Notes: generated from the sequence alone by a model not told the origin. DNA of 64,000 nucleotides from an uncultured delta proteobacterium (GCA_963810975.1 CAWEPN010000004.1:1157-65156), one strand, 5' to 3'; positions 3,610-53,094 are shown, counted from the stretch's first letter. Program-made: numbers and translations.

Positions 3610-3645
3610 ACGTACACAGTTTGGCTGACGTTGTATGACCGATCC

Positions 3646-3676
3646 GGGGGAGCTTTCTGCTCCCCCTGTTTTTTAC
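3646..3676 (+). terminator. Rho-independent terminator after dfx
   Basis: GGGGGAGC-TTTCT-GCTCCCCC hairpin followed by TGTTTTTT. Confidence 0.75.
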
Positions 3677-3688
3677 GCGGATTACACT

Positions 3689-4949
3689 ATGCTCCTCAAA
3701 TATGGCGAAAAATCTTTTATCTGTAACCTTCCACCAGTGAATCTGCTCGGGTTGATAAAGGCTGCGTCCGCTGCGGATCAATCTTCGCCGGAAGAGCAGA
3801 TCAATATTGCTCTTGATAACTGTCAGCAGCAGATCTCAAACATAAAACCTTCTGAAGATGTCGTCATTGTTGCTTCAGATATCACCCGTTACAGCGGCAG
3901 TGAGATCTTTATGCCAATGCTGGTGGAGCGGCTTAATGAAGTTGGCGTTGTCGACAGCGCCATCACAATTGTTATCGCTCTCGGGATTCATCGCCAACAG
4001 ACAGAAACGGAACATCGCCGCATAATCGGCTCTCTCTATGGCAGAGTAAAAGTTATTGATCACGACTGTGACGATCCGGGCAAATTGGTGACCGTTGGCG
4101 TCACGACCTGTGGTATTGAAGTCTCGCATCAACCGGACTGTTGCCGAGGCAGATCATCTCATTCTGACCGGAACAATCGGCTTTCACTACTTTGCCGGGT
4201 TTAGTGGCGGGCGTAAAAGCATCCTCCCGGGGGTCTCCAGTCGCGCTGCCTGCATGGCAAGCCACTTCAATGTTCTCAACCCCGGCGAAGGAAACGGCAA
4301 GAACAGTTTTGCCGTTACCGGCAATCTTGACAACAATCCGGTGCACAGCGCAATGGTCGAGGCCTGCGCTATGGTAAAGCCTGATTTTATTCTCAACACA
4401 GTGCTGTCGCCGGACAAACAGATAATCGCAGCCTTTGCAGGACACTGGCAGGATGCACATGAAGCAGGCTGTCGCTATTATGCTGAAAACTTTGCCTATC
4501 CATTGAAAGAGAAGGCTGATTTGGCAGTTGTCTCCTGCGGCGGTTTTCCGAAGGATATAAACCTGATCCAGGCGCACAAGTCGATGGAGTATGGCAGTCA
4601 AGCGTTGAAAGATGGCGGAGTTATGATACTCCTTGCCGAGTGCCGGGACGGCTACGGCAATGCAACATTTTTCAACTGGTTTCGTTTCAGGGATCTTCCT
4701 TCGTTTGAGAGCAGGCTGCGCAGCCATTACGAAATCAACGGTCAGACGGCATATTCCCTGTTGCAGAAGGCGCTTCGCTTCCGTATCATTCTGGTTTCCA
4801 CGTTGCCACCGGAAGAGGTCCGGACAATGCGGATGATCCCGGCAGCGACGCTTGATGAGGCGCTGCAGATGGCAAAGGAAATGCTGCCGGACGATTTTAC
4901 GGCGTACGTTATTCCGGAAGGCGGAACGGTGCTGCCGGTCAAGATTTAA
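3689..4949 (+). CDS. LarA-family (DUF2088, nickel-pincer lactate-racemase-like) protein, split by a frameshift near 4128
   Basis: N-terminal MLLKYGEKS... and the LarA signature ADHLILTGTIGFHYFAGFSGGRKSILPGV. The two track ORFs (3635-4204 and 4095-4949) are contiguous in homology (..TTCGIEV | INRTVAEADHLIL..) and differ by a 1-nt frame change. Confidence 0.7.
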
Positions 4950-17199: not shown

Positions 17200-17607
17200 A
17201 TTTGTAACGTTGTTTGAAAAAAATCTTGACATAAGTTTTTTAATTCGTAATATGTCGTTAACATTTTAGGAGAAGCTCCTTTTGTCCGTACTGTGGAAGG
17301 GCTCATACGTTTTGATCTACCTGTTTTAGAATTAGTGTCTTGACAAAGAATCTATGTTTATGTTATTTAACCGAAACTTCTTAAAGGGTGTCAATGTTAA
17401 AGCTACAGACAACTGACATAGCTGGTAGAATTATAAAAGCTCTGGGTGGGTTGCTTAATATTTGAGCAGCCTTCAGAGCTTTATTTTTTTTGACAACAGG
17501 TCAGGAGTTAAAATCTATTTAAAAGGAGTGATTGGAGAGTAGTCTAGACAGTGGTAATCAGAAACTAGAATCCAGTTATTATCATCAACCATACAGGAGG
17601 AAGCACA

Positions 17608-19102
17608 ATGAAGAAGAAGCTAGTAATTTTAAGCGCAGCAGCTATGGCAGTTGCTGCAGCAGTCCCGGCACTCGCTTTCGAGAACGAGTTCCACGGCATG
17701 TATCGTCTCCGCGCCAATGTGACGAATTTTCAGGAGGCAGGACTTGCCGGTTTCAAGTGTGGCGCATCCAGCAGCTGTACCACACCAGCCAGTAGCATTA
17801 CCCGTAACACAAACAGCATTATATTCGAAAGACGATCGGACTTCACTATCTTCGAGCAGAGAGCCCGGATCCAGTACATTGCCAAGGCGAGCGACGATCT
17901 TCAGCCTGGTAACCTTCTTTGAAATCGACTCCTCCTGGGGTGACACTGCCTATACAAACGGCACAGAGGCCAAGGCGCCGGTGCTGGCGGCGACTCAGTC
18001 AACCTCGAAACCAAGAACGTCTATCTTGACTTCAAGATTCCCTTCGACTCCGGTACAGATGAAAGTCGGTCTGCAGCCCTGGGGCGATGCCTACAAAGGG
18101 ATCATCTACAACAATGATCTTGCCGGCGCAGTTGCCACTGCCAAGCTCGATGCCCTGACCGCCACGCGGCGCATTCTTCCGCACCTATGATCAAGGTGGC
18201 GAATAGCACTGTCGGCAAGAAAAATGTCGACCTCTACGTGCTTGACGGCAAATTCGCCCTCAACAAGGACACCACCCTCGGCGCCTCCTACTATGCTGTT
18301 CTATAATGATAATACTACAAGCGCACTACACCGTCTGCGACTGTTGGAGCCCGAACGAGAATGCTATGACCATACGTTTGGTCTGAATGCCGCCACCAAG
18401 CTGGGAATAGTTGGTCTCGACGCCTTTGTTCTTTACCAGACCGGTGATGCGCTTTACGATTTCGTGCTGCTCACTAACTGGACAAACCAAAGATGTGAGT
18501 GCCTGGGCTGCCCAGATCGCTGCCAATGCCAATCTCGGCATGGCTACCGTTCAGCGGCGCTTTCCTCTACACCTCCGGTGATGACCGTGAAGATAATGAT
18601 GAAACAAATGCCTTCCAGGTAATTCAGGAAAATGCCAATGCTGCTGCGCCAGCAACTATTTGCAGCTCAGGGTGGCAACTACTACTCCTCACAGATGATG
18701 CTCCTCTTCAGAAACGTCTATGCTATGGATTCCGACCAGGCGATAGTTGCTAACTTCAACAACGGCAATCACGGCGTCATGGCCGGTTTCCTCGGCGCTG
18801 ATTTCAAGGTCAACGACAAGTTCACTGCTAACGTAAATGTTGGCGCTGCCTGGAATGCTGAGAAGCAAACTGTCGGTACTATAAAGAAAAAGATGATTTC
18901 CTCGGTACAGAGGTTAACCTGAGTCTCAACTACAAGCTCTATCCGACCCTGACTGCTACCCTCCAGGGTGCTTACTTCATGCTTGGCGACTACTATGACG
19001 ACAGAGTTGTAACCGCCCGTAGCGCTGCACACAGGCCGTCACAGCTACAGATGATCCGAAAGATCCGTACCTTACCGGTCTGATGCTGAACTACACATTC
19101 TA
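17608..19102 (+). pseudogene. Outer-membrane porin-like beta-barrel protein fragmented over at least 5 frames
   Basis: Signal peptide MKKKLVILSAAAMAVAAAVPALA. Successive track ORFs at 17608, 17744, 18224, 18499 and 18632 plus untracked pieces. Terminal ...DDPKDPYLTGLMLNYTF* with the C-terminal Phe typical of OMPs. Confidence 0.55.
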
Positions 19103-19148
19103 AGTTTTATGACAATCCTCGCAGATGAGGAACAAAGCTGAAGCGAGA

Positions 19149-19179
19149 CGGGGGAAAGGTGACTTTCCCCCGTTTTTTA
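19149..19179 (+). terminator. Rho-independent terminator
   Basis: CGGGGGAAAGG-TGAC-TTTCCCCCG followed by TTTTTTAT. Confidence 0.75.
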
Positions 19180-19235
19180 TTATGTGGTGGTTGCGTATCA
19201 GACTTGGTTGTGGCAATATGCACATACATAAAAAA

Positions 19236-19387
19236 CTTGAAACACAGAGACACAGAGGACACAGAGTAATCTGAAAATCTTGATAGAAAGAGCATCATAG
19301 AGGCGAACGAGGATGCCATTTGTGTCATAACAGTTCTATCGATATAAAATGTGTTTTCTCTGTGAACTCTGTTGCCTCTGTGTTTAA
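19236..19387. repeat. CACAGAG-type palindromic intergenic element, copy 7
   Basis: CTTGAAACACAGAGACACAGAGGACACAGAGTAATC ... TTTTCTCTGTGAACTCTGTTGCCTCTGTGTTTAAG. Confidence 0.75.
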
Positions 19388-19438
19388 GAACTGTCTGTTA
19401 CAGATTAATTCGTTATGTAAATTCATTGTGGAGTACTT

Positions 19439-23355: not shown

Positions 23356-25638
23356 GTGTTTGGAGTTTATATCAAACGTCTCCGCATCAAAATAAACGGT
23401 ATCGTCCAAGGGGTCGGCTTCAGACCCTTTGTCTTCAGGCTTGCCCAGAAAATGGCGTTGACAGGGTGGGCGCAGAACGGTTCTGAAGGGGTGCTGATCG
23501 AGGTTCAAGGGGACGAGCCTCTCCTGCATGAGTTTCTTCGTCTTCTCGAATCTGAAGCTCCGCCCCTGTCGTTGGTAGCATCTATAGCAACAGCTGAGAT
23601 TCCTGCAACTCCAGAGAGCGACTTCAGGATAATCGAAAGCAGCACAGGCAGTGGCAGCACCCTCGTTTCCCCTGATTGCGACGTCTGTCCGGACTGCTTG
23701 CGCGAGCTATTCGATCCAACCGACCGTCGTTACCTCTATCCGTTCATCAACTGCACCAACTGCGGTCCCCGCTATTCGATCATAACCACTACTCCCTACG
23801 ACAGACCGAATACCACCATGGCTGACTTTCCGCTCTGTCCGGATTGCGCGCGGGAGTACCGCGACCCGAATGATCGTCGTTTCCATGCCCAGCCGATTGC
23901 CTGTCCGGTCTGTGGCCCCGTACTGACCCTTTTTGATGCAGCCGGTGAGCCATTGCCAGCAGAGCCATTGGCAACAACAGTGAAGATGCTGCGTGACGGA
24001 GCTATAGTCGCAGTCAAAGGGATTGGCGGTTATCATCTGGCGGTTGATCCTTGTAATGCTGCTGCGGTAGAAAAGCTGCGCAGAAGGAAACGTCGGGATG
24101 AAAAACCGTTTGCGCTGCTGACTGATTCTGTTGAAAAAGCGAAGAAACTTGCTCATATAAACCGGACTGAGGAGCTTTTCCTTCTTGGCCCGGAGCGGCC
24201 GATAATGCTTCTGCGGAAGCGGCCAGGGAATATGGTCGCGGCAGAAGTTGCGCCTGCCAACGATTATTTCGGTATTATGCTCCCTTCTGCTCCGCTTCAT
24301 TATCTGCTGTTGAGAGACAACTTTGCGGCACTGGTAATGACCAGCGCAAACCTGTCTGACGAGCCGATTATCTATAAAGATGCGGATGCCGTGGGGCAAC
24401 TTTCCGGGATTGCCGACTTTTACCTGAGTCATAACCGGCAGATATATGCACCTTCCGACGACTCTGTTATCAGGACCTTCCGGACACATCCCCTTATGCT
24501 GCGGCGCTCAAGAGGGTACGTCCCCCGACCGGTAATGATTCCCGAGATAGGCGGATCTGTCCTCGCCCTTGGTGCCGAGCTGAAGTCAGCTGTTTGTCTG
24601 GCAAGCGCTGATCAGGCATTTCTCAGCCGGCATCTGGGGGATTTAAAGAGTGCGGCGACAATGGCAGCTTTTGCAGAGAGTATTGATAGCTTGGAAAAGA
24701 TAACCGGCATTAAGCCGCAACTTTTCGCTCATGACCTTCACCCTGACTATCATTCGACTGTATTTGCCGCAACTCTGCCCGGCAAGAAAATTCCGGTACA
24801 GCACCACCATGCCCATCTGGCCTCCTGTATGGCCGAGAACCGTCTTGAAGGGGACGTTATAGGCGTTATTTTCGATGGCGCCGGTTACGGAACTGATGGC
24901 ACGATATGGGGGGGCGAGTTTCTAGCGGGTGGGTACAGTCAGTTCAAACGGGTCGGACATCTGCGGCAGATGGCCATGCCAGGCGGCGATGCGGCTGCCA
25001 GAGAACCTTGCCGGATGGCGATTTCCCTGCTGTACCAGTTGCACGGGGCAGAGCTGTTTGACCTCCCCTTCCGGTTTTTGCAGGATGTGCCACGGGATCA
25101 GCAGAAACTCTTTATTCAGATCCTGCAAAAAGGGATAAACTCCCCTTTGACTTCCAGTTGCGGCCGCCTCTTTGATGCCGTCGCCGCAGTTCTCGGGCTA
25201 AGGAACAGCATAAGTTATGAGGGGCAGGCGGCTATTGAGCTGGAAGGGGAGGCTGAAAAGGGGGTCTGTGTTGATCCTTATCAATTTGGGATTATGAGAA
25301 GCGGGGGAGGTATTATTCTCGACTGGCTACCGTTGCTAAAAGGGGTCGTCGAAGATCAGCTGGCCGGACGGAGGCGCTGCGATATTGCCGCCGCGTTTCA
25401 CCACACTCTGGCGCTTGCCGCAGCCGCAGTCTGCCGGGAAATACGCTCTGACAGTGGTCTCGACAGGGTAGCGCTTTCAGGCGGCGTTTTCCAGAACAGG
25501 CTCCTCAGTGAGGAGTTGGTGATCCTTCTCGAAAAAGATGGTTTCAAGGTATATACTCATCGACTGGTCCCCCCCAATGACGGCGGACTGGCGCTGGGGC
25601 AGGCAATAATAGCGGGGAGGAGTCAGAAATGTGTGTAG
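23356..25638 (+). CDS. hypF: [NiFe]-hydrogenase maturation carbamoyltransferase HypF
   Basis: Acylphosphatase domain (VQGVGFRPFV), two Zn-finger pairs (CxxC), YrdC and Kae1-like domains. 760 aa. GTG start. Confidence 0.88.
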   Translation: MFGVYIKRLRIKINGIVQGVGFRPFVFRLAQKMALTGWAQNGSEGVLIEVQGDEPLLHEFLRLLESEAPPLSLVASIATAEIPATPESDFRIIESSTGSGSTLVSPDCDVCPDCLRELFDPTDRRYLYPFINCTNCGPRYSIITTTPYDRPNTTMADFPLCPDCAREYRDPNDRRFHAQPIACPVCGPVLTLFDAAGEPLPAEPLATTVKMLRDGAIVAVKGIGGYHLAVDPCNAAAVEKLRRRKRRDEKPFALLTDSVEKAKKLAHINRTEELFLLGPERPIMLLRKRPGNMVAAEVAPANDYFGIMLPSAPLHYLLLRDNFAALVMTSANLSDEPIIYKDADAVGQLSGIADFYLSHNRQIYAPSDDSVIRTFRTHPLMLRRSRGYVPRPVMIPEIGGSVLALGAELKSAVCLASADQAFLSRHLGDLKSAATMAAFAESIDSLEKITGIKPQLFAHDLHPDYHSTVFAATLPGKKIPVQHHHAHLASCMAENRLEGDVIGVIFDGAGYGTDGTIWGGEFLAGGYSQFKRVGHLRQMAMPGGDAAAREPCRMAISLLYQLHGAELFDLPFRFLQDVPRDQQKLFIQILQKGINSPLTSSCGRLFDAVAAVLGLRNSISYEGQAAIELEGEAEKGVCVDPYQFGIMRSGGGIILDWLPLLKGVVEDQLAGRRRCDIAAAFHHTLALAAAAVCREIRSDSGLDRVALSGGVFQNRLLSEELVILLEKDGFKVYTHRLVPPNDGGLALGQAIIAGRSQKCV

Positions 25639-25859
25639 GGGTGCCGATGCAGGTTATCAGTATTGACGGTGACGATATTGTCGCCGAAGTCGATGGTGTT
25701 CGTCGCAGTGCCAGCCTGATGATGCTGGGTGATGAGGTCAAAATCGGCGATTTTCTCATCATTCATGCCGGGTTTGCCATTTCGAAGCTGGATGAAGAGG
25801 AGGCGCGGGAAACGCTTGAAAATGATGCGGGAAGTGTTTTCGGAAGAGGATATGCATAG
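25629..25859 (+). CDS. hypC: Hydrogenase maturation factor HypC
   Basis: MCVGVPMQV N-terminus, 76 aa. Overlaps the hypF stop. Confidence 0.85.
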   Translation: MCVGVPMQVISIDGDDIVAEVDGVRRSASLMMLGDEVKIGDFLIIHAGFAISKLDEEEARETLENDAGSVFGRGYA

Positions 25860-25867
25860 TTGAGAGC

Positions 25868-25985
25868 TGTAGAGCTGCAGGTATTCTAAGCTCATTCCGC
25901 TACAGCAGATAAACTCGCTTCGCTCAGACAGTATCTGCTGTATGCTGCATTTCGCCAAGAATTGCCACGAACAGCCGAGGCTCTC
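25868..25985 (+). repeat. Family-B structured repeat, core-only copy, in the hypC-hypD spacer
   Basis: AAGCTCATTCCGCTACAGCAGATAAACTCGCTTCGCTCAGACAGTATCTGCTGTATGCTGCATTTCGCCAAGAATTGC. Contains the ACAGCAGATA/TATCTGCTGT stem. Confidence 0.55.
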
Positions 25986-26017
25986 ACAGGCATCTCAACT
26001 ACTGCATCGAGGTGACT

Positions 26018-27097
26018 ATGAACTACCAGGATGAATTCCGCCAGAAAGAGCTGTGCAGGGGCTGGGCGGATTCGAGCTTGTCTCCGGCTGCGCACGATGA
26101 ACTTTATGGAGGTTTGCGGCACCCATACCATGGCGATCTACCGCTTCGGACTGCGCTCCCTGCTCCCCCCCGAGATAAAGCTCATTTCCGGTCCCGGTTG
26201 TCCGGTCTGTGTCACCCCCAATGATTACCTGGATCGGGCAATAGCCATCTGTCGGCTTCCTGAAGTTATAACCGTTACCTTTGGCGATATGATGCGAGTG
26301 CCGGGTTCGAGCGCATCACTCCTCGAAGAGCGGGCAAAAGGGGCGGATATCCGGATTGTCTATTCGCCTCTCGATGCTGTAGCGATAGCGGCAAAGAACC
26401 GTGAAAAAAAAGTGGTCTTCCTCGGGGTAGGGTTTGAAACAACCGCACCGACGATTGCCGGCAGCATACTGACAGCCGAGGCGCAGGGGCTTGCCAACTA
26501 TTTTGTCCTGGCGGCGAACAAGACTATCCCTATTCCAATGCAGGTGCTGGCTGCCGACCCGGAGATTGCCATCGATGGCTATATCTGTCCGGCTCATGTC
26601 AGCGCGATCATCGGTGCGGATGCCTATAAACCGCTGGCTGAAAAATTCATACCCCGTGCGTAATTACCGGCTTTGAGCCGGCTGACATGCTCCAGGGGAT
26701 CCTCATGCTGGCGGGGCAGCTGCTGGCCGGTGAAAGCCGGGTCGAAATCCAGTACAGCCGGGTGGTGCGGCCGGAAGGGAACCTGAAGGCTCAGGCAATG
26801 CTTGCGAAGATGTTCGACCCTTGCGATGTCTCGTGGCGCGGTATCGGTGTAATTCCAGGCAGCGGGTTGCGGATCAGGGATGAGTACAGCCGTTTTGATG
26901 CTGCAAAGATGATTCAGGTTGAGGTTGAACCGACAAAAGAACATCCTGGCTGTTCGTGCGGCGAGATTCTTAAGGGGAAGATGCAGCCGAACGAGTGCGC
27001 ACTCTTCGGCAATATCTGCACTCCCGAGAGTCCTGTCGGCGCCTGCATGGTGTCCAGCGAAGGGAGTTGCGCGGCTGCGTACCGGTATGGTCAGTAG
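26018..27097 (+). CDS. hypD: Hydrogenase maturation factor HypD; two apparent frameshifts
   Basis: MNYQDEFRQKELCRGW, then MEVCGTHTMAI...GPGCPVCVTP, then ...CSCGEILKG...CTPESPVGACMVSSEGSCAAAY. Track ORFs 26012, 26031 and 26687 are successive pieces. GAGGTG RBS before the ATG at 26018. Confidence 0.7.
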
Positions 27098-28536: not shown

Positions 28537-31500
28537 TCAAACGGGGTCGGCAATGGCGGCGTAAATCTGATCCATGCTGGCGTAGCTTGAGCCCTGCTTG
28601 CGCATATGGTTTTGTATCGCCTCCAGCCGCAGCCGGATGCTTTCTTCGGCCATCTTGCGCAGTGTGGCGGCTTGCTGGTCGATCTCTTCTCTGGCTATGG
28701 GTGAATCTGTCAGGGAGATGGGGGCCAGTTCGATATTGAGCCGGTTCCTGCAAAAACTCCGGAGAAGCTGCAGGTGGTTCTCGCCGAAGGAGAATACCTC
28801 GGGGACCAGTGAAGAGAAGCTGTAGACCGGCAGCACGTCCTTGCCGAGTTGCCGGTAAGAGTCAAGCAGTTCCGGTTCCAGGTCGAAGTAGTTCTTCACC
28901 GGCATATACATGCGCTGCAGATACTGCAGGACTTTCTCGGTCTTTTTGCGGTGACCGCCGATGATCACTGATGCGCCGATCTCCCCTTTGTTCGCCCCTT
29001 TGATCCAGGGTGCGCCGGTGATGCCGAAATCATTCAACACCGGCAGGTTGATTAATACCGAGAGGGTGTTGATCGCCAGGGCGAAACCGGCTGAGGGGCC
29101 GCCGACGTTATAAGAGGCGGAGAGCAGCTGGTGGTGAATCGAATAACCGTCAAGGAATTCACCCAGCAGTCGCGACATATTCACATCCGGCAGGAGTGAC
29201 TGCAGGTAGCACTCAACCAGGGTCAGCGCTTCACGGGAACTCTGGTGAGTCATCTGTACCGCCAGATCGAGTTCCGCTCCGGGGGCGGAACTGGTCGAGA
29301 CCGCGCCGGTTACGACAATCTTTTCCGGATACATCCGGTAGACCAGCGTCGAGGCGATCGGCAACAGCACGCCACTGGTATCGTTGGCGCCGACTCCGAC
29401 GACAAAACCGACCTGCGGTTCTCTGGATAATTCGGTTTCCAGGAATTCATCGAGCTGCTGTTTCCCCTTGCGCTGCGGGCTGGCAGCTAACTGCTGGCGG
29501 GCGTTAAGCAGGTGCCAGCGGGTGACCGGAAAGTCTTTATCGGTTTTTATTCCGGAGAAACAGGCGAATATTTCATCCAGCCGCTCGAGCATCCCCTCTT
29601 CCCCTTGCCGGGCCTTTTGGGTCAGGGCGCTGTTTGGGCTCAGCCCTTCAAGAAGACCGAGCAGAATCTTGTAATTGAAACGGACAAAACGGGTTTTCTC
29701 CTCGCTGTCTGCAGCGCTGGTGCTCAGCAGCTTCTGGATGACTTCCATTTCGGTGGTACGCAGGGAGCGGATCTTCTCGGCATAGGCGGTGTAGTCCGCC
29801 GGTGTTTCGCAGATGGTATTGCTCTGGCGGGTGATCTCCTCAATCGTCAGTTCGTTGGCAAGCGGGATCCCGGCCAGCGCCTGGCTGATGATCCGTGAGC
29901 GGTCCTCGTCGCGCAGATGGCCGGTGACATTCAGTACTTTAAGCCGTTTCGAGCGGATCAGCGCCGGGTCGATGATGTCCAGCCGGTTGGTGGTCAGCAC
30001 GGTAAAGACTCGATTCAACGGGGATTCGCCATCGATGATGGAAAGGAACTTGTTGGTGATCTTGTCATAAGGGCTCCCCCCCTGCGGTGAACGGCGCGGG
30101 GCTATGGCATCCCCTTCGTCGAAAAATACGATCGCCGGAGAGATCATCTTGGCGATATCGTAAATCCGTTCCAGGTTCGCCATCATCCCTTCGAGGGGGC
30201 TGTTGACATCGGTCAGATCCGAGAGATTGGCGGCAATATCCTGAACATCATGATTATTCCCCAGCCAGGCGCGGACCAAAAAGGTCTTTCCCGAACCGGG
30301 TGGCCCAGCCAGGACAACTCCTTTTTCCTCGTTGATATTGTAGAAAAGGGCGTTGTTGGCCATCTCGGAGAATTCGTTCTTGATGGTGCCAATATACTCC
30401 TTCCAATCGATGCTGCGGTCGAGCTCGCCGACTACCTTGTTGTAGAGAGAACCATGAACATTGCGCGCCACCGATTTGAGTGCGTCGCGGATCAAAAGCT
30501 GGTCATCGAGGAACTCGGTGAGAAAATGCCCCTTGATGGTAATCAGCGAGTCGATGAGTCTCCGGACATAAGACGGGGTGATACGCAGGCTGCGCTGACG
30601 AAAGATCGGATAAAGTTTTTGTACCGAGAGGTCAATTTCTTCTTCCGAGAGGTGCGGCGGTCGCTCAGCCAGGGGATCCCTAGGGTGGTTGCTCCGGCGT
30701 AGTTCCAGGCAGACCACCTCTCGCAAATTGGCCGGGTCATCCCAGATCTCGTTGACGTCGATGATCATTCCCCGCTCCACGAAACGGCGGTAGATCGCCG
30801 GATCGAACTGTTCCGGCTGATCAGTGGTGGCGATAACGATACAGTCGCGCCGACCATAGGCGATCTCATCAAGGATTATGTTCGCGGCATCGACCAGGGT
30901 GGCCTGCTGACCTTTGATTGAGCTGCGTTCGTCCGGGCGGCCGAATGCTGAATGCGCTTCTTCCAGGTGACGAATTGTCGGCATGCGCGGGTCGCCCATT
31001 GCTTTAAGCAGGTAGTTGCCCGGTTCTCCTGCCCAGGCGGTCTGATAGTCGTTCGGCGTGATAACGCCGTGATCGACCCACACCCCCTCTTCGTCGAGAG
31101 TGGAAAGGGCCTGGCTGATCCGGTTGCGGAAAAGATAGCGGATGAGCGGCAGCCGTGAGTAAAAGCGGAGTCTGGTGCGTTTGCGGCGTCGCTCGATACG
31201 GATTGCCAGTTCAGGGATCTACATCGATCAAGCTGCGCCAGATCGGTTGATCGGCCATTACCTCTTCCCGCTTGGCGTCCAGATCGACAACCGGTTTGAC
31301 TTCAGAGGAGAAGAAGGCCTCCTCGATTGCCTGCTTGACCGTGGCGCTCTTGCCGCTGCCTGAATTGCCGATCACCAGAACCAGGGGCGCACGGGGAATC
31401 AACGGATCATCACTGTATTCCTTGAGGATAAAGGCGTGATAGAGCCGGTCGAATAGCTCTTTAATCGACCTGGGCACAAAAGTGTCGACGGTTTCTTTTT

Positions 31501-32791
31501 CAAGCAGGAAGGTCAGGTAGTGGTGATCCTGGGAGTCGAGTTCCTTGGAGAGGATATGATTCCAGGCGGCAGTGGCGTCCTGTGAGCCGGCAGCTTCAAA
31601 ACGCTGGTGCCAGTCGTTGAGCAGACCCGGATTCTGCAATAGTTTGAATTCGCGTTGATCCGCTTTGAAGATACGTTGCAACCAGTTGCGAAAACGATGC
31701 GGCGCCGAGCGATTCGGTTCGTACTGGTGCAGTCGGCGCAGGACGAAACGGCGCGTTTCATTACTCCAGCCATTGACCAGATTCTCGATCTGGCGGATGC
31801 GTGTTTCCGACAGGCTGACGTAGATCGGCGTCCTAGTTCTTCTTGGGACATCGCGTTTTACCGGAACCTGAGGTTGAAGAGTGCTGGTGGAGGGGAGAGT
31901 CAACGGGACCGTCGACGCGGTATTGTTGAGAACAAAGGTGTTCTGCCCCTGTTGGTTCTTCTGATAAGCCGACGCCCACTTCTGCTGATTGAGAAAATCC
32001 AGCAGGTAAGGTTCGTTGCTGCTGCTGATGCCGAGCGCCTGGCGCATCTCCCGGATCGATTCGGTGTAGGCGGCATAGAGTTTTCTGGTCTGGCTGGCTT
32101 CCTGATCGGCTGCGTAATTATCAGCCTCGGCGATCAGCTCGCGGCGTTTTTTCTCTTCACTTGCTTCGGCCAGTTTTTCGCCGTAGCGGGTATCGCGGAG
32201 GATGAAGGAGATAATTTCGATGCCGTACTTCTGCCCCAGGGTCAATCCCCCCTCGTTGACCGGCTGATCCTTCAGTGTCCGGAAAATCTGCTCCTTAATG
32301 CGCACCCGGTCGGAGATCAGCGCGTTGATTGCTTCACCCTGCATCACGTCCTTGACGATCCCGTCGAACTCGGTCTGCAACAGTGTTTGTGGCGAACGAT
32401 TTTCAATCCCCCAGCGATTCAGATCCCGAATTCTGAAGGTCAGCATGGCACTGGTCCAGAGAGCGACATTCCCTTTCGACATGATCCGCTGTGGTTCACT
32501 GCTGTTGCCGAGGTGCATTTCCTGATTCATCAGCGGCACTTCGAGTTCCAGGCGGGTGAAGATCGGCAAGCGCAGATGCCAGCCAACGTCGGTGATCGCA
32601 ATCCGTTCCCCGGAAAGGGTTTCGAGGATGACCGCATAATTCTTGCGAATCTTATAGATGGTCTTGGTGGCGTAAATCAGCGCCACCCCGCCATAAAGAA
32701 GGACGACGGCCAGCAACAGCAAAAAGGCTTTTTTAAGAAGATTTTTCAGACGGGCGCGGTTGAGCAGGGTGGATTGCAGTTCCTGTTTCAC
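28537..32791 (-). CDS. Giant membrane-anchored SPFH(band-7)-AAA+(D1)-AAA+(D2)-Lon(S16) protease fusion, about 1375 aa; split in the track by a 1-nt frame change at 31211
   Basis: N-terminal TM helix and SPFH/prohibitin-like domain. Walker A VLVIGNSGSGKS at the end of ORF 31211-32791. The +1 frame continues uninterrupted (..IDVDP|ELAIRIERRRK..) into ORF 28537-31083, whose start carries D1 sensor-1 and Arg finger (IVIATTDQP, DPAIYRRF). D2 has GPPGSGKT, IVFFDEGDA, TTNR. Lon catalytic Ser in VGGPSAGFA (about 29081-29098) and Lys in IGGHRKKTEKV. Confidence 0.75.
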
Positions 32792-32947
32792 AATGTGACT
32801 CCAATCATAAGAAATGTGAGGCCAACAGGCAGCTACGTAAGGAACGCGGGTTAATTAATGTTATCAGCTAAAGTGTCCGTGTCAAACGCACAATATTAAA
32901 ACGGGCTGCTCGGGCCGGCTCACGGATGGCGGATGCTCCATGCTCCT

Positions 32948-33835
32948 TTACCCCTTTGCTTTCGGATGCGCTTTGTCATAGACCTCCAGCAGCCGGTCGA
33001 TGCTGACATGGGTGTACTTCTGGGTGGTTGAAAGGGAGGCGTGCCCCAGCATCTCCTGAATCGAACGCAGGTCTGCGCCGCCTTCGAGGAGATGGGTGGC
33101 GAAGGTGTGGCGGAGCGTATGGGGTGAGGCTTTTTTCATGGTCTGGAGATGGAGCATGTATTTGTCGACAATCCGGGCGACGCTGCGGCGGGTAAGCCTG
33201 CCGCCCCGCGAGTTGGTAAACAGTGGCGCATTCATCCCCGGATTGCCCTTCATCTCAAGGTACTCTTCCAGGGACTTGATGGCTTTGCTGCCGAGCGGAA
33301 TTATCCGCTCTTTTCCCCCCTTTCCCAAAACCCGCACAGACCCGGCCAGAAGATCGACCCCTTTGACATCAAGTCCGGTCAATTCAGATACCCGCAGCCC
33401 GGAAGAGTAGAGCGTTTCGAGAATCGCCCTGTCTCTCGCCGGCAGCTCTTCAGGCAGTTTGGGGGCTTCCACAAGAGTGGTAATTTCATCTATGTTCAGG
33501 TGGAAAGGGAGCTTTTTTTCTTTTTTCGGAGTACTGACCAGTTCAGCCGGATTTTTCTCGATTATTCCGCGCCGGAGGAGAAATCTGAAGAGCGAGCGGA
33601 TCGCCGCCAGTTTTCTGCCGACACTGCTTTTGGTCAGCTCTTTATGGACTGAGGCGAGGTAACGGCGGATATGGAGATGGTTTATCTGCCGGATTGTCAG
33701 GGAGGGGTCTATCTGTTGGCGGAGAAATGCAGCGAACTGCTGCAGGTCACGGCTGTACGCTTCAACAGTGTGGGCCGAGGCGTTGCGTTCCGACTGCAGA
33801 TACTGGATAAATGTGACGATCTCCTGCTGCATCAA
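32948..33835 (-). CDS. Tyrosine site-specific recombinase, XerC/XerD-like
   Basis: N-terminal SAM-like core-binding domain (YLQSERNASAHTVEAYSRDL). C-terminal catalytic R...HxxR...Y with LGHASLSTTQKYTHV. 295 aa. Confidence 0.8.
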   Translation of the reverse strand: MMQQEIVTFIQYLQSERNASAHTVEAYSRDLQQFAAFLRQQIDPSLTIRQINHLHIRRYLASVHKELTKSSVGRKLAAIRSLFRFLLRRGIIEKNPAELVSTPKKEKKLPFHLNIDEITTLVEAPKLPEELPARDRAILETLYSSGLRVSELTGLDVKGVDLLAGSVRVLGKGGKERIIPLGSKAIKSLEEYLEMKGNPGMNAPLFTNSRGGRLTRRSVARIVDKYMLHLQTMKKASPHTLRHTFATHLLEGGADLRSIQEMLGHASLSTTQKYTHVSIDRLLEVYDKAHPKAKG

Positions 33836-38955: not shown

Positions 38956-39360
38956 TCACTTTTTATCCTTGAGCAGATCCCGTATTTCCGTCAGCAATAC
39001 TTCTTGATTTGACGGGGCTGCCGGTGCCGCCGGGGCAGCAGCTTCCTGCTTCTTAAGAGAATTGATCGCCTTGACCGCCATGAAAATGGCAAAGGCAACA
39101 ATAGTAAAATCAACGACTGTCTGGATAAACTTTCCGTAGCTGATTACTACGGCCGGGTTTTTGTCAATTGCCTCCCTGAGAATAAATGACAAGTTGGAAA
39201 AATCGACTCCCCCCACCAGAACGCCAATCGGCGGCATGATCACGTCGCCGACAAATGACGAAATAATTTTACCGAACGCCGCCCCGATAATGATGCCGAC
39301 TGCCATGTCAACCACGTTGCCTTTTACGGCGAACTCCCTGAATTCTTTCATTACGCTCAT
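38956..39360 (-). CDS. mscL: Large-conductance mechanosensitive channel
   Basis: [33 protein letters not shown]... is the canonical MscL TM1. 134 aa. Confidence 0.9.
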
Positions 39361-39382: not shown

Positions 39383-40356
39383 TTATTTTATGAGTCTACC
39401 ATATTCTTGCGAAGTTACAGCTGATTTCCAGTGACCGGAAATTCTCCCCATAACTGTTCCGCCGCAGAAGATCAGCAGCACCAGCAGCGCAAATATTATC
39501 CCCGGTATGGCGATTTTTCTGCCCGGCAGTTTCATTGCCAGTGCCCCTTCGGCCCGGCAGTAGCTGATGCAGCGCCAACAGCCGATGCACTCGGGCGAAT
39601 GAACCCGTTCTTTCGACATGACCGGGATGTATGTCGGGCAGAACTGGCTGCAGACGCCACAGGAGACGCAGGTTCCATGATCTCTTGTGACTTTCGCCGG
39701 TGAAAAGACCGCCACGAGTCCCAGCAGTGCGCCGTACGGGCAGAGGAAACGGCAGAACGGGTTTCTGAGCGGCAGTGACAGGAGCAACGTGACGAGAATA
39801 AAGAGCAGCGGCCAGCCGGAAAGGTTCAGAAAAAAGTCGAGCATCCGGACATCGGCGATCTTGTTGTAGTCCGAGTTGATAAAGGCGCTGACCTGTTCAA
39901 AGGCATCTTGATGAAGATGAAGTAGATGAAAAACGCCAGGAGCAGGTATTTCTGGCTGCGCAGGATCATATCGAGCCAGTGCGGCGTGCGGATGTTTCGC
40001 TTGAAAAGTGCGAAGCCCCGCTTCCAGAGGAGCTCTTCGATGGTTCCTATCGGGCAGATCCACGAGCAGAACGAGCGCCGCAGCAGCAGCGAAACAGCCA
40101 CAATCGAGACTAGAATGACCACGGAGGCGGGATGGATCGGGTTAATGCTGCCGGTTAAAAACCACTCCTTGACGCCGAGGAGTGCGGCGATCGGCAGAAA
40201 AGCCTCAACGCCCTCAGCTCTCGGGACTGGCGGTGAGCTGCCGCCGCTTCTGAAATGGGCGACAAATTGATAGAAACGGAAGCCGAGATAGACGATGAAA
40301 AAGAGGTAGAGCCACTGAATCGTTATTCTGAGCGGCTGCATGTAGCGATTGCCCAT
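39383..40356 (-). CDS. Integral-membrane polyferredoxin (NapH/MauN-like, 4Fe-4S binding); frameshift near 39950
   Basis: Track ORFs 39826-40356 and 39383-40063 overlap. CPIG, CPYG and CxxCxxCxxxCP motifs. Confidence 0.6.
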
Positions 40357-49892: not shown

Positions 49893-50029
49893 ATAAAATC
49901 ATCTTTGAATTTGTCGCTCGGTCTAACATGATGAAACTGCAACTCCAATTTGCAGTTGTTTTCATTTGACTACTAAACTGGCGGCTGTTAAAGCTTTTCA
50001 AAATTGAAGATCAATCGATATGGTGCCGT

Positions 50030-50280
50030 ACCTTTAGCGGGTACGGATAATAGGGAAGAGGGTGAAAAACCCTCGCTGTCCCGCAACTGTAAGGGTGTAC
50101 TGATCTCGCACAATACCACTGGGGAAACCTGGGAAGGGGCGAAATCGGGTTGATCCCCAAGCCAGGAAACCTGCCATTCCGATGCTGTTTTGGAACCTCC
50201 GTGGAAAGAGGGGCCGGGACCGGAGTGTATCCACACACCACGATTTCGACCCCTTCCGACACCGGACAGGGGTTTTTTGT
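50030..50280 (+). promoter_or_regulatory. Probable TPP (THI-box) riboswitch with a terminator-type expression platform in the thiC leader
   Basis: ACUGAUCUCGCACAAUACCACUGGGGAAAC resembles the conserved CUGAUCYGGAUAAUACCRGCGNAGGGA half. The 5' half has GGGUG but an atypical CUGUAA in place of CUGAGA. A CCCCT...AGGGG TTTTTT attenuator lies at about 50240-50275. The leader is about 340 nt. Confidence 0.5.
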
Positions 50281-50331: not shown

Positions 50332-51642
50332 ATGTCAACCCAGATCGAATTCGCCCGCCAAGGCATTATTACTTCACAGATGCATACCGTGGCTCTTAAT
50401 GAGCAGCTTGAAGCGGAGTACATCCGCCAAATGGTGGCCGAAGGTAAAATAGTCATACCCTGGAATCATAACCGTAAACCCTCAAGGATTGCAGGGATCG
50501 GTAAAGGGTTGTCAACCAAGGTCAACGCTTCTATCGGCACCTCCTCGGATATTGTTGACTACAGTGCGGAGGTGCAAAAGGCTCTGGCGGCTCAGGAAGC
50601 CGGTGCTGATACCCTGATGGAACTTTCCGCAGGCGGTGATCTTGATCGGGTAAGGCGCGAGGTGCTTGCCGCCGTTGAACTGCCGGTCGGCAATGTTCCG
50701 CTCTACCAGGCTTTCTGTGAGGCTGCCCGCAAATATGGCGATCCCAACAAGCTTGACGAGGAGATGCTCTTCGATCTGATCGAAAAACAGTGCGCCGACG
50801 GCATGGCTTTTATGGCGGTTCACTGCGGTATCAACCTTTGCACCATCGAACGGCTTCGGAAGCAGGGGTATCGCTATGGCGGGCTGGTTTCCAAGGGGGG
50901 CGTATCAATGGTTGCCTGGATGATTGCCAACAATCGTGAAAACCCGCTCTACGAAAAATTCGACCGGGTGGTCTCGATTCTTAAGCGATACGACACAGTG
51001 TTGTCGCTTGGCAATGGTCTGCGTGCGGGTGCTATTCACGACTCCTCTGATCGAGCCCAGATTCAGGAGTTGATTTTTAACTGCGAGCTGGCCGAAATCG
51101 GTCGAGAGATGGGTTGCCAAATGTTGGTGGAAGGGCCTGGGCACGTTCCACTGGACGAGATTGAGGGGAATATTCAGTTGCAAAAGCGGATGAGCGGCGG
51201 GGCGCCATATTATATGCTTGGCCCGATTACTACAGATGTGGCCCCCGGCTTCGACCACATCACTGCCGCCATAGGTGCAGCCCAATCGAGCCGCTTCGGT
51301 GCTGATCTGATCTGTTACATTACTCCTGCGGAGCATCTTGCTCTTCCCAATGAGGAGGACGTGCGTATGGGGGTCAAGGCTGCCAAGATTGCGGCATATA
51401 TTGGCGATATGAACAAATATCCGGAAAAGGGGCGTGAGCGGGATAAGCAGATGTCCAAGGCCCGGCGCGATCTGAACTGGGAAAAGCAGTTTAATCTGGC
51501 ACTCTATCCTGATGATGCTTGTGCTATTCGCGCGAGCCGTACCCCTGAAGATGAAGAGACCTGCACCATGTGTGGCGACTTCTGTGCCTCGCGCGGCGCT
51601 GGCAAGCTATTTTCCGCTGATCTGAAAGGTGATAAGCTCTGA
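50332..51642 (+). CDS. thiC: Phosphomethylpyrimidine synthase ThiC
   Basis: TKVNASIGTS and the C-terminal CTMCGDFC cluster. 436 aa. Confidence 0.9.
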   Translation: MSTQIEFARQGIITSQMHTVALNEQLEAEYIRQMVAEGKIVIPWNHNRKPSRIAGIGKGLSTKVNASIGTSSDIVDYSAEVQKALAAQEAGADTLMELSAGGDLDRVRREVLAAVELPVGNVPLYQAFCEAARKYGDPNKLDEEMLFDLIEKQCADGMAFMAVHCGINLCTIERLRKQGYRYGGLVSKGGVSMVAWMIANNRENPLYEKFDRVVSILKRYDTVLSLGNGLRAGAIHDSSDRAQIQELIFNCELAEIGREMGCQMLVEGPGHVPLDEIEGNIQLQKRMSGGAPYYMLGPITTDVAPGFDHITAAIGAAQSSRFGADLICYITPAEHLALPNEEDVRMGVKAAKIAAYIGDMNKYPEKGRERDKQMSKARRDLNWEKQFNLALYPDDACAIRASRTPEDEETCTMCGDFCASRGAGKLFSADLKGDKL

Positions 51643-51744
51643 AAAGAGGCAACCGGGCCTTTAGAGAAGATTTTTGTGGGCAGAGGACTTGACAGTAAGG
51701 TGGTTTGTAATTAGTTTTTAAATAATTACCACAGGAGGTCATCA

Positions 51745-53094
51745 ATGCGCATATCCAGCTATCTTTTTGTTACGGCACTTTCTATGACTTTGGTCTGTCC
51801 AGTTTCTCCGGCGAGTGCCAAATATTCGCCACCGGACTTTGTAGAGATGGCCAAGAGACTGAAACCGACCGTTGTTAATATCGGAACCGAGAAAAAGGCG
51901 AAACAACAGCGGCGTCAGCAGCTTAGGCCTTACGGTAATTCACCCTTTGGCAGTGACCCCTTTCAGGATTTCTTCGACAGGTTTTTTGATGAGCAGCTTC
52001 CGCAGAGCAGGGCGCAGAAGAGTCTCGGTTCAGGCTTTGTCATAAGCGATGACGGCTATATCCTTACGAACAACCATGTAGTCGATGGAGCAGATGAGAT
52101 AAAGGTGAAGTTTGACAACGGCAAGGAGCTCAAGGGGGAGTTGAAAGGGAGTGACGCCAAGCTTGACCTTGCGCTGATAAAGGTAACTACCGATGAAAAA
52201 CTATCCGTTGCGGCTCTTGGCGACAGTGACGCGATAGAGGTCGGTGAATGGGTAATGGCAATCGGCAATCCTTTCGGTTTGTCGGAAACCGTTACCGCCG
52301 GAATTGTCAGCGCAAAAGGGAGGGTTATCGGCAGCGGTCCCTATGATGATTTCATCCAGACTGACGCCTCTATTAATCCGGGCAATTCAGGCGGACCTCT
52401 CTTTAATGGCAAAGGCGAGGTTGTCGGGATAAATACCGCTATAATCAATGGCGGCCAGGGGATAGGCTTTGCTATTCCGGTAAATATGGCGAAGTCAATC
52501 ATTACACAATTGAAGGACAAGGGGAAGGTCACCAGAGGATGGATGGGGGTTTCGGTTCAGCAGGTGACAAAAGACCTTGCCGACTCTTTCGGGCTTCCGG
52601 CTGAAGGGGGCGCGCTGGTGAGTGAAGTGACCCCTGACAGTCCTGCAGAGAAAGGTGGCATGAAATCCGGCGACATAATCATCAGCTTTGACGGCAAGGC
52701 TATAAAAGAGATGACTGACCTGCCGCGTCTTGTAGCGGCAACAGCTACAGGGAAGAGTGTTGCGGTGAAGATCATTCGTGATGGAAAGGAAGAGTCTCTC
52801 ACTCTTGTCATTGAGAAGATGAAAGATGATGAAGAGCCATCAGCTGAAACTCAGGATAAACTGGGCTTAACAGTAAAAGATCTGACGAAAGAGCTTGCTG
52901 CAAGCCTTCGGATCAAGGATACCTCAGGCGTGGTAGTCACGGATGTAAAGCCGGACAGTCTTGCCGCCAGTGCCGGGATCCAGAGGGGAGACATCGTCCG
53001 GGAGATAAACGGGGTCAGGATCACCAAGACTGAAGAGTATGAAAAAGCTCTTGCCAGTGCCAAAAAGGACAAAGTTGCTGAGGCTTCTCGTTAA
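51745..53094 (+). CDS. Periplasmic serine endoprotease DegP/HtrA-like (trypsin domain plus two PDZ)
   Basis: Signal peptide. Catalytic triad context HVV, DLALIK, GNSGGPL. Two PDZ domains. 449 aa. Confidence 0.88.
   Translation: MRISSYLFVTALSMTLVCPVSPASAKYSPPDFVEMAKRLKPTVVNIGTEKKAKQQRRQQLRPYGNSPFGSDPFQDFFDRFFDEQLPQSRAQKSLGSGFVISDDGYILTNNHVVDGADEIKVKFDNGKELKGELKGSDAKLDLALIKVTTDEKLSVAALGDSDAIEVGEWVMAIGNPFGLSETVTAGIVSAKGRVIGSGPYDDFIQTDASINPGNSGGPLFNGKGEVVGINTAIINGGQGIGFAIPVNMAKSIITQLKDKGKVTRGWMGVSVQQVTKDLADSFGLPAEGGALVSEVTPDSPAEKGGMKSGDIIISFDGKAIKEMTDLPRLVAATATGKSVAVKIIRDGKEESLTLVIEKMKDDEEPSAETQDKLGLTVKDLTKELAASLRIKDTSGVVVTDVKPDSLAASAGIQRGDIVREINGVRITKTEEYEKALASAKKDKVAEASR

Follow-up and report, generated by a model that had tools for sequence, protein, structure and literature searches.

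An apparent SPFH-AAA-AAA-Lon fusion from an uncultured delta proteobacterium resolves into two neighboring genes, an SPFH scaffold and a putative double-ring AAA-Lon protease

Partnerships between SPFH proteins and proteases have precedents in HflK/C with FtsH and in stomatin with NfeD, whose long form is a Ser-Lys serine protease (PMC13086221). In the first of these systems, the SPFH protein is anchored in the membrane and has an ATP-dependent AAA+ protease as its partner; in the second, represented by P. horikoshii PH1511/PH1510 and E. coli QmcA-YbbJ, the SPFH gene sits in a tight operon with its partner. Here, we compare with these systems a locus at positions 28,537 to 32,791 of a 64,000-nucleotide (nt) stretch of DNA from an uncultured delta proteobacterium (GCA_963810975.1 CAWEPN010000004.1:1157-65156), to which we refer as the window. 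A preliminary description of this locus had recognized a membrane-anchored single chain uniting an SPFH domain, two AAA+ domains and a Lon protease domain, and had likened it to the SPFH-protease partnerships, an analogy that our analysis supports. We find, however, that the apparent giant fusion is two neighboring genes, one for an SPFH scaffold and one for a putative double-ring AAA-Lon protease, which are seemingly fused through two indels, and that no real fusion underlies the earlier description. The overall explanation, including the origin of the defects and the function of the pair, is in our judgment a likely one.

At the level of open reading frames (ORFs), the locus, which like all its features below lies on the minus strand, reads as an upstream ORF of 526 amino acids (aa; 31211..32791) and a downstream ORF of 848 aa (28537..31083). 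The upstream ORF ends in ...IDVDP followed by TGA, and the frame of the downstream ORF is open back to 31212, where it starts with ELAIRIERRRK.... Skipping one base at 31214-31216 joins both ORFs without a stop, confirming the one-nucleotide frame break noticed earlier. The stretch recovered past ...IDVDP matches residues conserved among homologues, which indicates that the open frame is not there by chance. The joined product thus exists on paper as described, but from the GTG at 32791 it measures 1417 aa rather than ~1375 aa, the earlier figure having left out the 43 codons that lie from the TGA to the GTG at 31083.

None of the homologues found for this joined product is itself a fusion. 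Searching with the joined protein returned 114 close homologues (53-90% identity) from Desulfuromonadales and related bacteria, which are about 930-1146 aa long (nearly all 1,040-1,146 aa), cover ~77% of the query and in no case contain a Band_7 domain. The best 120 listed SPFH homologues all span 255-397 aa and contain Band_7 only, and a profile search of 1.84 billion representative proteins yielded about ten full-length clusters, none of them longer than ~1,140 aa, so that the domain architecture proposed earlier occurs in none of these three sets. A genome scan detected a relative in 316 species genomes, and gene-pair structure was examined in 83 related loci out of these. In 80 of the 83, the SPFH gene lies directly upstream of the AAA gene on the same strand and has its own stop; in one more (L042) it lies ~330 nt further up, and the other two have no sequence on that side. 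No in-frame fusion of SPFH and AAA was present in any of the loci with usable upstream sequence. The two genes typically overlap or abut by 1, 4, 17, 23 or 71 nt, as in three loci (L001-L003) where a 320-aa Band_7 gene stands by itself and shares 23 nt, in another frame, with the AAA gene, and in six related loci with called genes the AAA gene is the sole operon partner of the SPFH gene, with one SPFH gene per operon. The two-gene operon structure is therefore near certain, and the single-chain architecture does not hold. The alternative that the preliminary description itself had named, two separate genes, is what the family displays, with the boundary lying elsewhere than at the stop it had considered.

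Sequence identity in this family tracks taxonomy, from >80% in Geobacterales through 61-75% in other Desulfuromonadales to ~52% in Desulfobacterales, which fits vertical inheritance. Cultured carriers are Malonomonas rubra DSM 5091, Geopsychrobacter electrodiphilus, Desulfuromonas soudanensis, Desulfuromonas sp. DDH964 and Geothermobacter hydrogeniphilus. In databases the proteins go under generic names (“AAA family ATPase,” “SPFH domain-containing protein,” “regulator of protease activity HflC”), and in the literature we found no description of an SPFH plus AAA-AAA-Lon operon or of a two-ring Lon. Judged from the sequences collected here, the intact pair is a conserved, unstudied and strictly linked system of sulfate- and metal-reducing bacteria that occurs in Thermodesulfobacteriota only.

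How, then, does the window come to show a fusion? The SPFH/Band_7 gene occupies 31833..32791 with a GTG start at 32791, and the AAA(D1)-AAA(D2)-Lon gene occupies 28537..31851, with the family start ATG at 31849-31851 and the stop at 28537-28539. DNA alignment reveals exactly two indels across the 4.2 kb of coding sequence and no other stops. At 31843..31847, 4 nt are missing from the window, next to a substitution, where all 15 closest relatives are full-length; at 31214..31216, the window has one extra nucleotide that is missing from all 15. Neither defect occurs in the 14 closest genomes or in the contig L087. The closest comparison is offered by L087, a 1,928-bp short-read contig found via the SPFH search, which is ~97% identical, covers both defect sites and has intact genes. 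Around the first site, whose intact form reads ...GTCCCCATCAC..., the window has GATGTCC----CAAGAAG against GATGTCCCCATCACGAAG in L087 (in longer context, GATGTCC----CAAGAAGAACTAG against GATGTCCCCATCACGAAGAACTAG), and at the second site it has GAT CCC TGA against GAT CCT GAA (aligned, GAT-CCTGAA in L087 and GATCCCTGAA in the window). The SPFH protein of L087 (P0268), 98% identical to that of the window, is 320 aa long and ends in KRDVPITKN*, and its AAA gene starts with MSPSRRTRTP and reads through codon 214; in a second relative, 98.4% identical, the SPFH protein is likewise 320 aa long. This end is shared by the relatives in general, at a TAG that is present in the window as well (31833-31835) and is out of frame there through the 4-nt gap.

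The two defects together account for the arrangement of the ORFs. The 4-nt gap cancels the +1 offset between the two genes, so that the SPFH frame enters the AAA frame and the AAA start ATG is thrown out of frame; by itself it suffices to bring the two frames into register. The extra base then re-breaks the frame 630 nt past the gap and creates the TGA at 31211-31213, which cuts the AAA gene after codon 214. The SPFH gene therefore looks continuous with the first 214 codons of gene 2, while the remaining codons of gene 2 show up as an ORF of their own. The preliminary description had taken a single extra nucleotide as the sole anomaly; the extra base is there, and the 4-nt gap had escaped notice. 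We also considered that the first defect might combine a natural one-codon deletion with a 1-nt homopolymer error (CCC for CCCC), a repair that would give an SPFH protein of 319 aa and an AAA protein of 1104 aa, and discarded this idea since L087 is full-length at the site, making the defect a 4-nt gap.

Repair of both defects gives an AAA-Lon product of ~1,104 aa, whose residues we number after the homologue P0001. In the joined protein, Pfam AAA matches two stretches (E 9e-28), and a CDC48-like model matches across residues 639-1011 (E 5e-26), spanning both AAA domains. The first of these, D1, carries the Walker A motif GNSGSGKS (31346..31369), in which G163, G166, S167, G168 and K169 are invariant in 65 sequences. 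It is followed by the pore-loop-1 motif TPNDYQTAWAGEPGN (31015-31059) and the Walker B variant IRHLEE (30958-30975), both with invariant residues, and by sensor-1 IATTDQP with the arginine pair YRRF (30781..30834), where A342, T343, Q346, P347, R356 and R357 are invariant. The pore loop follows the family pattern QTA[W/F/L]AGE, a canonical pore-loop-1, with WYGE in distant members. The Walker B pattern of the family is hRHhEE, so that the EE variant flagged earlier is genuine; one distant member has DE at the same position. Some ~125 residues separate Walker A from Walker B in D1, with an insert rich in basic residues. Between Walker A and the pore loop (~31060-31215, minus strand), this R/K-rich insert (RIERRRKRTRLRFYSRLPLIRYLFRNR...) is unusually long and conserved in the family, and it could possibly serve in binding to the membrane, to nucleic acid or to a partner.

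The second AAA domain, D2 (29938..30318), is a classical one, recognized by Pfam AAA at E 9e-28 and by p97/VAT at E 4e-40. Its Walker A GPPGSGKT (30283-30306) and Walker B FFDEGD (30109-30126), both conserved in the family, are accompanied by sensor-1 TTNR and by RSKR, making Walker A/B, sensor-1 and arginine fingers fully canonical. Both Walker A motifs, the D2 Walker B and the arginine fingers are invariant across homologues. Among distant members from the representative search (P0122, P0123, P0125 and P0126), some have QE or NE in place of the DE of the D2 Walker B and keep the Lon Ser-Lys dyad, which suggests that D2 in these lineages may bind ATP without hydrolyzing it.

The C-terminal part of the chain (28879..29439) is a Lon (S16) protease domain, identified by a C-terminal profile against the PDB. 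This family profile (A2) matched 44 PDB sequences, all of them Lon-family protease domains, the best being 1xhk at E 2e-10; TIGR00763 (Lon) matches at E 1e-9, and Pfam Lon_C is marginal on the single sequence (20.6 bits, cutoff 21.1). The serine in GGPSAG (29086-29103) and the lysine that is the fourth residue after GG in GGHRKK (28942-28959) both fall on the catalytic residues of 1xhk and 1z0b in the alignment, and this serine and the lysine of GGxxxK are invariant in 65 close members and in 20 diverse members down to 33% identity. Gene 2 is thus a predicted Ser-Lys Lon protease with ATPase and protease on one chain. The domain assignments made beforehand stand, from the transmembrane helix and SPFH/Band_7 to the two AAA domains and Lon S16, and the motifs GNSGSGKS, IRHLEE, IATTDQP, YRRF, GPPGSGKT, FFDEGD, TTNR, GGPSAG and GGHRKK are all found, with their key residues invariant in 65 homologues.

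The N-terminal ~150 residues of the AAA-Lon protein, which are helical, gave no significant profile match in the PDB and no recurrent Pfam family. Residues ~5-45 (~31715-31840, minus strand) read PIYVSLSE-TRIRQIENLV-NGWS-NETRRFVLRRLHQY and display a strand-helix-helix pattern. A ribbon-helix-helix fold at residues ~10-45 was entertained on the basis of the model secondary structure and of the best relevant hit, CopG at E 0.47; it found no Pfam support and is kept as an unverified lead. An AlphaFold2 model of P0001 (1101 aa) has a mean predicted local distance difference test score (pLDDT) of 65.5, falling under 50 in D2 and in part of the Lon domain, and was used for a coarse fold search only, in which p97 chains came out on top over ~700 columns.

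Gene 1 encodes a protein with a basic N-tail (LLxRARxK..LK+), one anchor, the SPFH domain, long helices, an FLNQQKWAxAY motif and a proline-rich tail; the basic tail and the FLNQQKWAxAY motif are conserved, and the proline-rich tail is variable. The predicted hydrophobic membrane anchor AFLLLLAVVLLYGGVALIYA (32669..32728, residues 22-41) was read from the sequence and is kept in 18 orthologues. The SPFH domain itself (32096..32653, residues 47-232) is recognized by Pfam PF01145 at E 4e-15, and its score of 56.7 bits against a cutoff of 23.6 places the protein in the SPFH/Band_7 superfamily. In a sequence-profile comparison, its closest matches are stomatin and QmcA (E ~1e-3). Its AlphaFold model, which places helices at residues 202-253 and 257-280, has a mean pLDDT of 62.0 and is good for the fold class only; at this level, the fold search matched HflK/C, prohibitin, stomatin and QmcA, all of them SPFH proteins that form cages, and nothing else. 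Within the 156-nt gap between xerC and the SPFH start, a consensus scan found a TG-extended promoter-like site, TTGACA-16-TAACAT (32858..32885, minus strand), which is a consensus match only (10/12 matches).

Set beside the described systems, the pair resembles each of them in part and belongs fully to none. Its SPFH model aligns over ~270 residues with HflK/C chains, and like HflK/C-FtsH the pair would combine a membrane-anchored SPFH protein with an ATP-dependent AAA+ protease. FtsH, however, contains a single AAA ring and an M41 zinc protease, carries transmembrane helices of its own and is encoded outside the hflKC operon, whereas the partner here is predicted from its sequence to be soluble and to combine two AAA domains with a Lon Ser-Lys protease, its gene being apparently coupled in translation to the SPFH gene; the likeness of this partner to FtsH extends to the AAA core only (68.8 bits against 600). 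HflK/C is moreover a hetero-oligomer of two paralogues, in contrast to the one SPFH gene found here. With stomatin-NfeD the locus shares the tight operon, but its partner is predicted to be ATP-dependent, is five to ten times larger and is not an NfeD; among the matches listed by the Pfam scan for this protein there was no NfeD or ClpP-type family. Likewise, the C-terminal S16 domain, the Ser-Lys dyad and the presence of ATPase and protease on one chain are features of Lon (LonA, archaeal membrane LonB and LonC), the archaeal LonB protease domains 1xhk and 1z0b being the best profile matches. Both the profile and the dyad place gene 2 in the Lon family (MEROPS S16), while it stays far below the Lon equivalog models (TIGR00763, 37.4 bits against 608; LonB, 32.5 against 517). 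To our knowledge, the known Lon classes have a single AAA+ module, whereas gene 2 has two AAA domains that resemble D1 and D2 of p97/Cdc48/VAT.

The tandem of classical AAA domains is shared with the type II AAA+ proteins p97/Cdc48/VAT/Cpa, and D2 matches p97 D2 at E 4e-40, the p97 match as a whole covering two stretches. The tandem motifs are those of type II proteins, apart from the EE in place of DE in the D1 Walker B, and the score of 91.3 bits lies below the CDC48 subfamily cutoff of 802.65. Further differences are the lack of a double-psi-barrel N-domain, in the place of which there is a helical N-domain that matches nothing, the ~125-residue gap between Walker A and Walker B of D1, and a protease in cis, on the same chain, instead of a 20S proteasome that docks in trans. 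BrxL of BREX, finally, also fuses an ATPase to a Lon-like domain, but the locus has no PADLOC match to BrxL and no BREX genes nearby, and it differs in ATPase type and context.

The 64-kb window contains at least six indels, several of them at short homopolymers. On the plus strand, hypD (26018-27094) is split into three frame segments (26018-26068, 26061-26645 and 26642-27094, in frames 2, 3 and 2); the frame changes close to a GGGG run (~26055) and again close to an A5 run (26641-26645), and the gene is otherwise 64% identical to intact HypD. The lactate racemase gene larA (3635-4949, plus strand) has a frameshift at ~4100-4130, placing Lar_N positions 1-146 in one ORF and positions 146-201 together with LarA_C in the next. 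A gene for a NapH/MauN-like 4Fe-4S (Fer4_5) membrane protein (39383-40356, minus strand) is shifted near 39900 by an apparent loss of an A in a short A run; after it comes an intact mscL at 38956-39360. Apart from these breaks, hypD, larA and the napH-like gene are well conserved.

Because the two defects of the operon are specific to the window, other genes of the window are frameshifted too, and the ratio of nonsynonymous to synonymous substitution rates (dN/dS) is low, an assembly error or a very recent mutation explains them best, and we regard a consensus error of the assembly as the most likely origin, with a very recent mutation a distant second. Against three intact relatives, dN/dS is 0.08-0.19 in the SPFH gene, in AAA codons 1-214 and in the remainder, the value between two intact copies being 0.09, which speaks for no relaxation of selection on the operon. 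Were both indels real, the operon would be a very recent pseudogene in the source organism: it would yield an SPFH protein with a 214-residue AAA extension ending at 31211, and what is left of D1 (deprived of Walker A), together with D2 and Lon, would either not be translated or depend on an internal start, for instance the GTG at 31083. In favor of this, the given sequence does contain the indels, a 4-nt gap with an adjacent substitution is atypical of homopolymer error, and the other broken genes could equally mean that this genome is gathering pseudogenes. We nonetheless consider a pseudogene unlikely, given that selection is not relaxed, that no further stops or indels occur in 4.2 kb, that the nearest relatives, at 98% protein identity, are intact, and that conservation of hypD, larA and the napH-like gene is likewise good apart from their breaks. 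A good deal less probable still, to the point of being hardly credible, is a real and functional fusion in which the 4-nt deletion joins SPFH to AAA and a +1 shift at the slippery CCC_UGA (31211-31216) produces the 1417-aa protein. CCC_UGA is a site prone to +1 shifting, and ribosomes slipping by +1 on CCC-U ahead of the UGA would produce the very sequence of the family, ...VDPELA...; the extra base or the fused frame is, however, found in none of the 15 relatives and a fused protein in none of the databases searched, no Shine-Dalgarno-like stimulator is visible upstream, and similar frame breaks occur in other genes of the window. Since two local indels, in a window with other frameshifted genes, make the fusion, a 1,400-aa membrane-anchored SPFH-AAA-AAA-Lon polypeptide does not merit an entry in any catalogue.

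An alternative that concerns function rather than gene structure is an anti-phage or abortive-infection module, tied to a mobile element via the adjacent tyrosine recombinase. A role of this kind had been raised as conceivable, together with the recombinase link. The recombinase gene (32948-33835, minus strand) scores 352.7 bits against the XerC equivalog cutoff of 335.15 (TIGR02224) and 323.9, just under the cutoff of 329.6, against the XerD model, and in 86 other loci the 6-8 kb around the operon contain no homologue of it; by these scores, the neighbor is a housekeeping XerC. With PADLOC, D2 gave weak matches to the IetA and TRIP13 ATPase models (E 1e-12), a ParDE toxin-antitoxin pair adjoins the operon in one relative, and the flanking genes vary between genomes, all of which count in favor of a defense module. 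The PADLOC matches are, however, limited to the generic AAA core, with none for the SPFH protein or the recombinase and none to any BrxL model. The variable neighbors are housekeeping ones (hyp genes, flagellar genes, aconitase, EF-G and ClpB), no third neighbor of the gene pair is conserved (the best neighbor cluster occurs in 18 of 76 loci), and the tracking of taxonomy by identity fits vertical inheritance. Neither a specific match to a defense-protein model nor a defense-island context was found at the locus, and we consider a defense role very improbable.

The reading we prefer is that of a membrane-associated protease system, to which, as a functional model built on analogy, we give about an even chance. 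Gene 1 would provide a ~320-aa single-anchor SPFH scaffold, and gene 2, whose start lies within the last codons of gene 1 in the other frame, suggesting translational coupling, would provide a ~1,100-aa soluble protein consisting of a helical N-domain, a modified D1, a p97-like D2, Lon S16 and a C-terminal helical tail. The latter may assemble into a stacked double-ring hexameric ATP-dependent protease. D1 keeps an aromatic pore loop, and ATPase motifs are kept in both rings; substrates would be unfolded by the rings and fed to a Lon chamber built in cis by the same chain. The close coupling of the two genes points to tethering or gating of the protease by the SPFH assembly, and we infer that a membrane ring or cage of SPFH protein might recruit, tether or gate it at the cytoplasmic membrane. 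The result would be a membrane-proximal protein quality-control machine, analogous to HflK/C-FtsH and stomatin-NfeD.

Several observations weigh against this explanation. Regarding the defects, a simple homopolymer error would not usually produce a gap of 4 nt, the frame breaks are paired ~600 nt apart both at the SPFH/AAA locus and in hypD, and an error cannot be separated from a real mutation in assembled sequence. As to function, pore loop 1 of D2 is degenerate, reading SPLEG (P-[LIV]-[ED]-G) and lacking an aromatic residue, confidence is low in both AlphaFold models (mean pLDDT 65.5 and 62.0), which are silent on an interaction, and our literature search found no support for a function of the operon. 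The topology of the SPFH protein is ambiguous as well, with five positive charges before the anchor and four after it, and if its SPFH domain were periplasmic, only the conserved 21-residue N-tail could touch a cytosolic protease; a cytoplasmic domain would leave room for a cage like that of QmcA around the protease.

Elsewhere in the surroundings, comparison with L001 gave 84% nucleotide identity for the SPFH/AAA operon (28537-32833) and only 64-75% for hypF, hypC and hypD (23356-27094), and the operon is inverted relative to the hyp genes; either it is conserved far more strongly than its neighbors or it has a different history. A DUF362 gene beside the operon in Desulfuromonas sp. DDH964 proved not to be an orthologue of the DUF362 gene in the window. 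Rfam and tRNA scans found nothing near the SPFH/AAA locus; farther away, a cobalamin riboswitch (RF00174, 125.9 bits) lies at 50004-50192 on the plus strand, upstream of ORFs at 50332-53094. A stretch of ~2.2 kb at 17200-19400 has no ORF of at least 150 aa and a low coding score in all six frames.

Taken together, it is a tentative proposal, which we rate slightly below even, that the intact pair constitutes a new ATP-dependent protease system found in Thermodesulfobacteriota only, a “double-ring Lon” with p97-like D1-D2 and Lon in cis that is obligately paired, and coupled in translation, with its own SPFH membrane scaffold. If this is true, HflK/C-FtsH and stomatin-NfeD would be joined by a third type of SPFH-protease partnership, and LonA, LonB and LonC by a further Lon class. 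SPFH proteins are ubiquitous and few of their partners are known; here the partner is fixed by gene overlap, in ~80 sampled genomes out of the 316 detected. The intact operon may also serve as a simple bacterial model in which to study how proteolysis at membranes is governed by SPFH assemblies.

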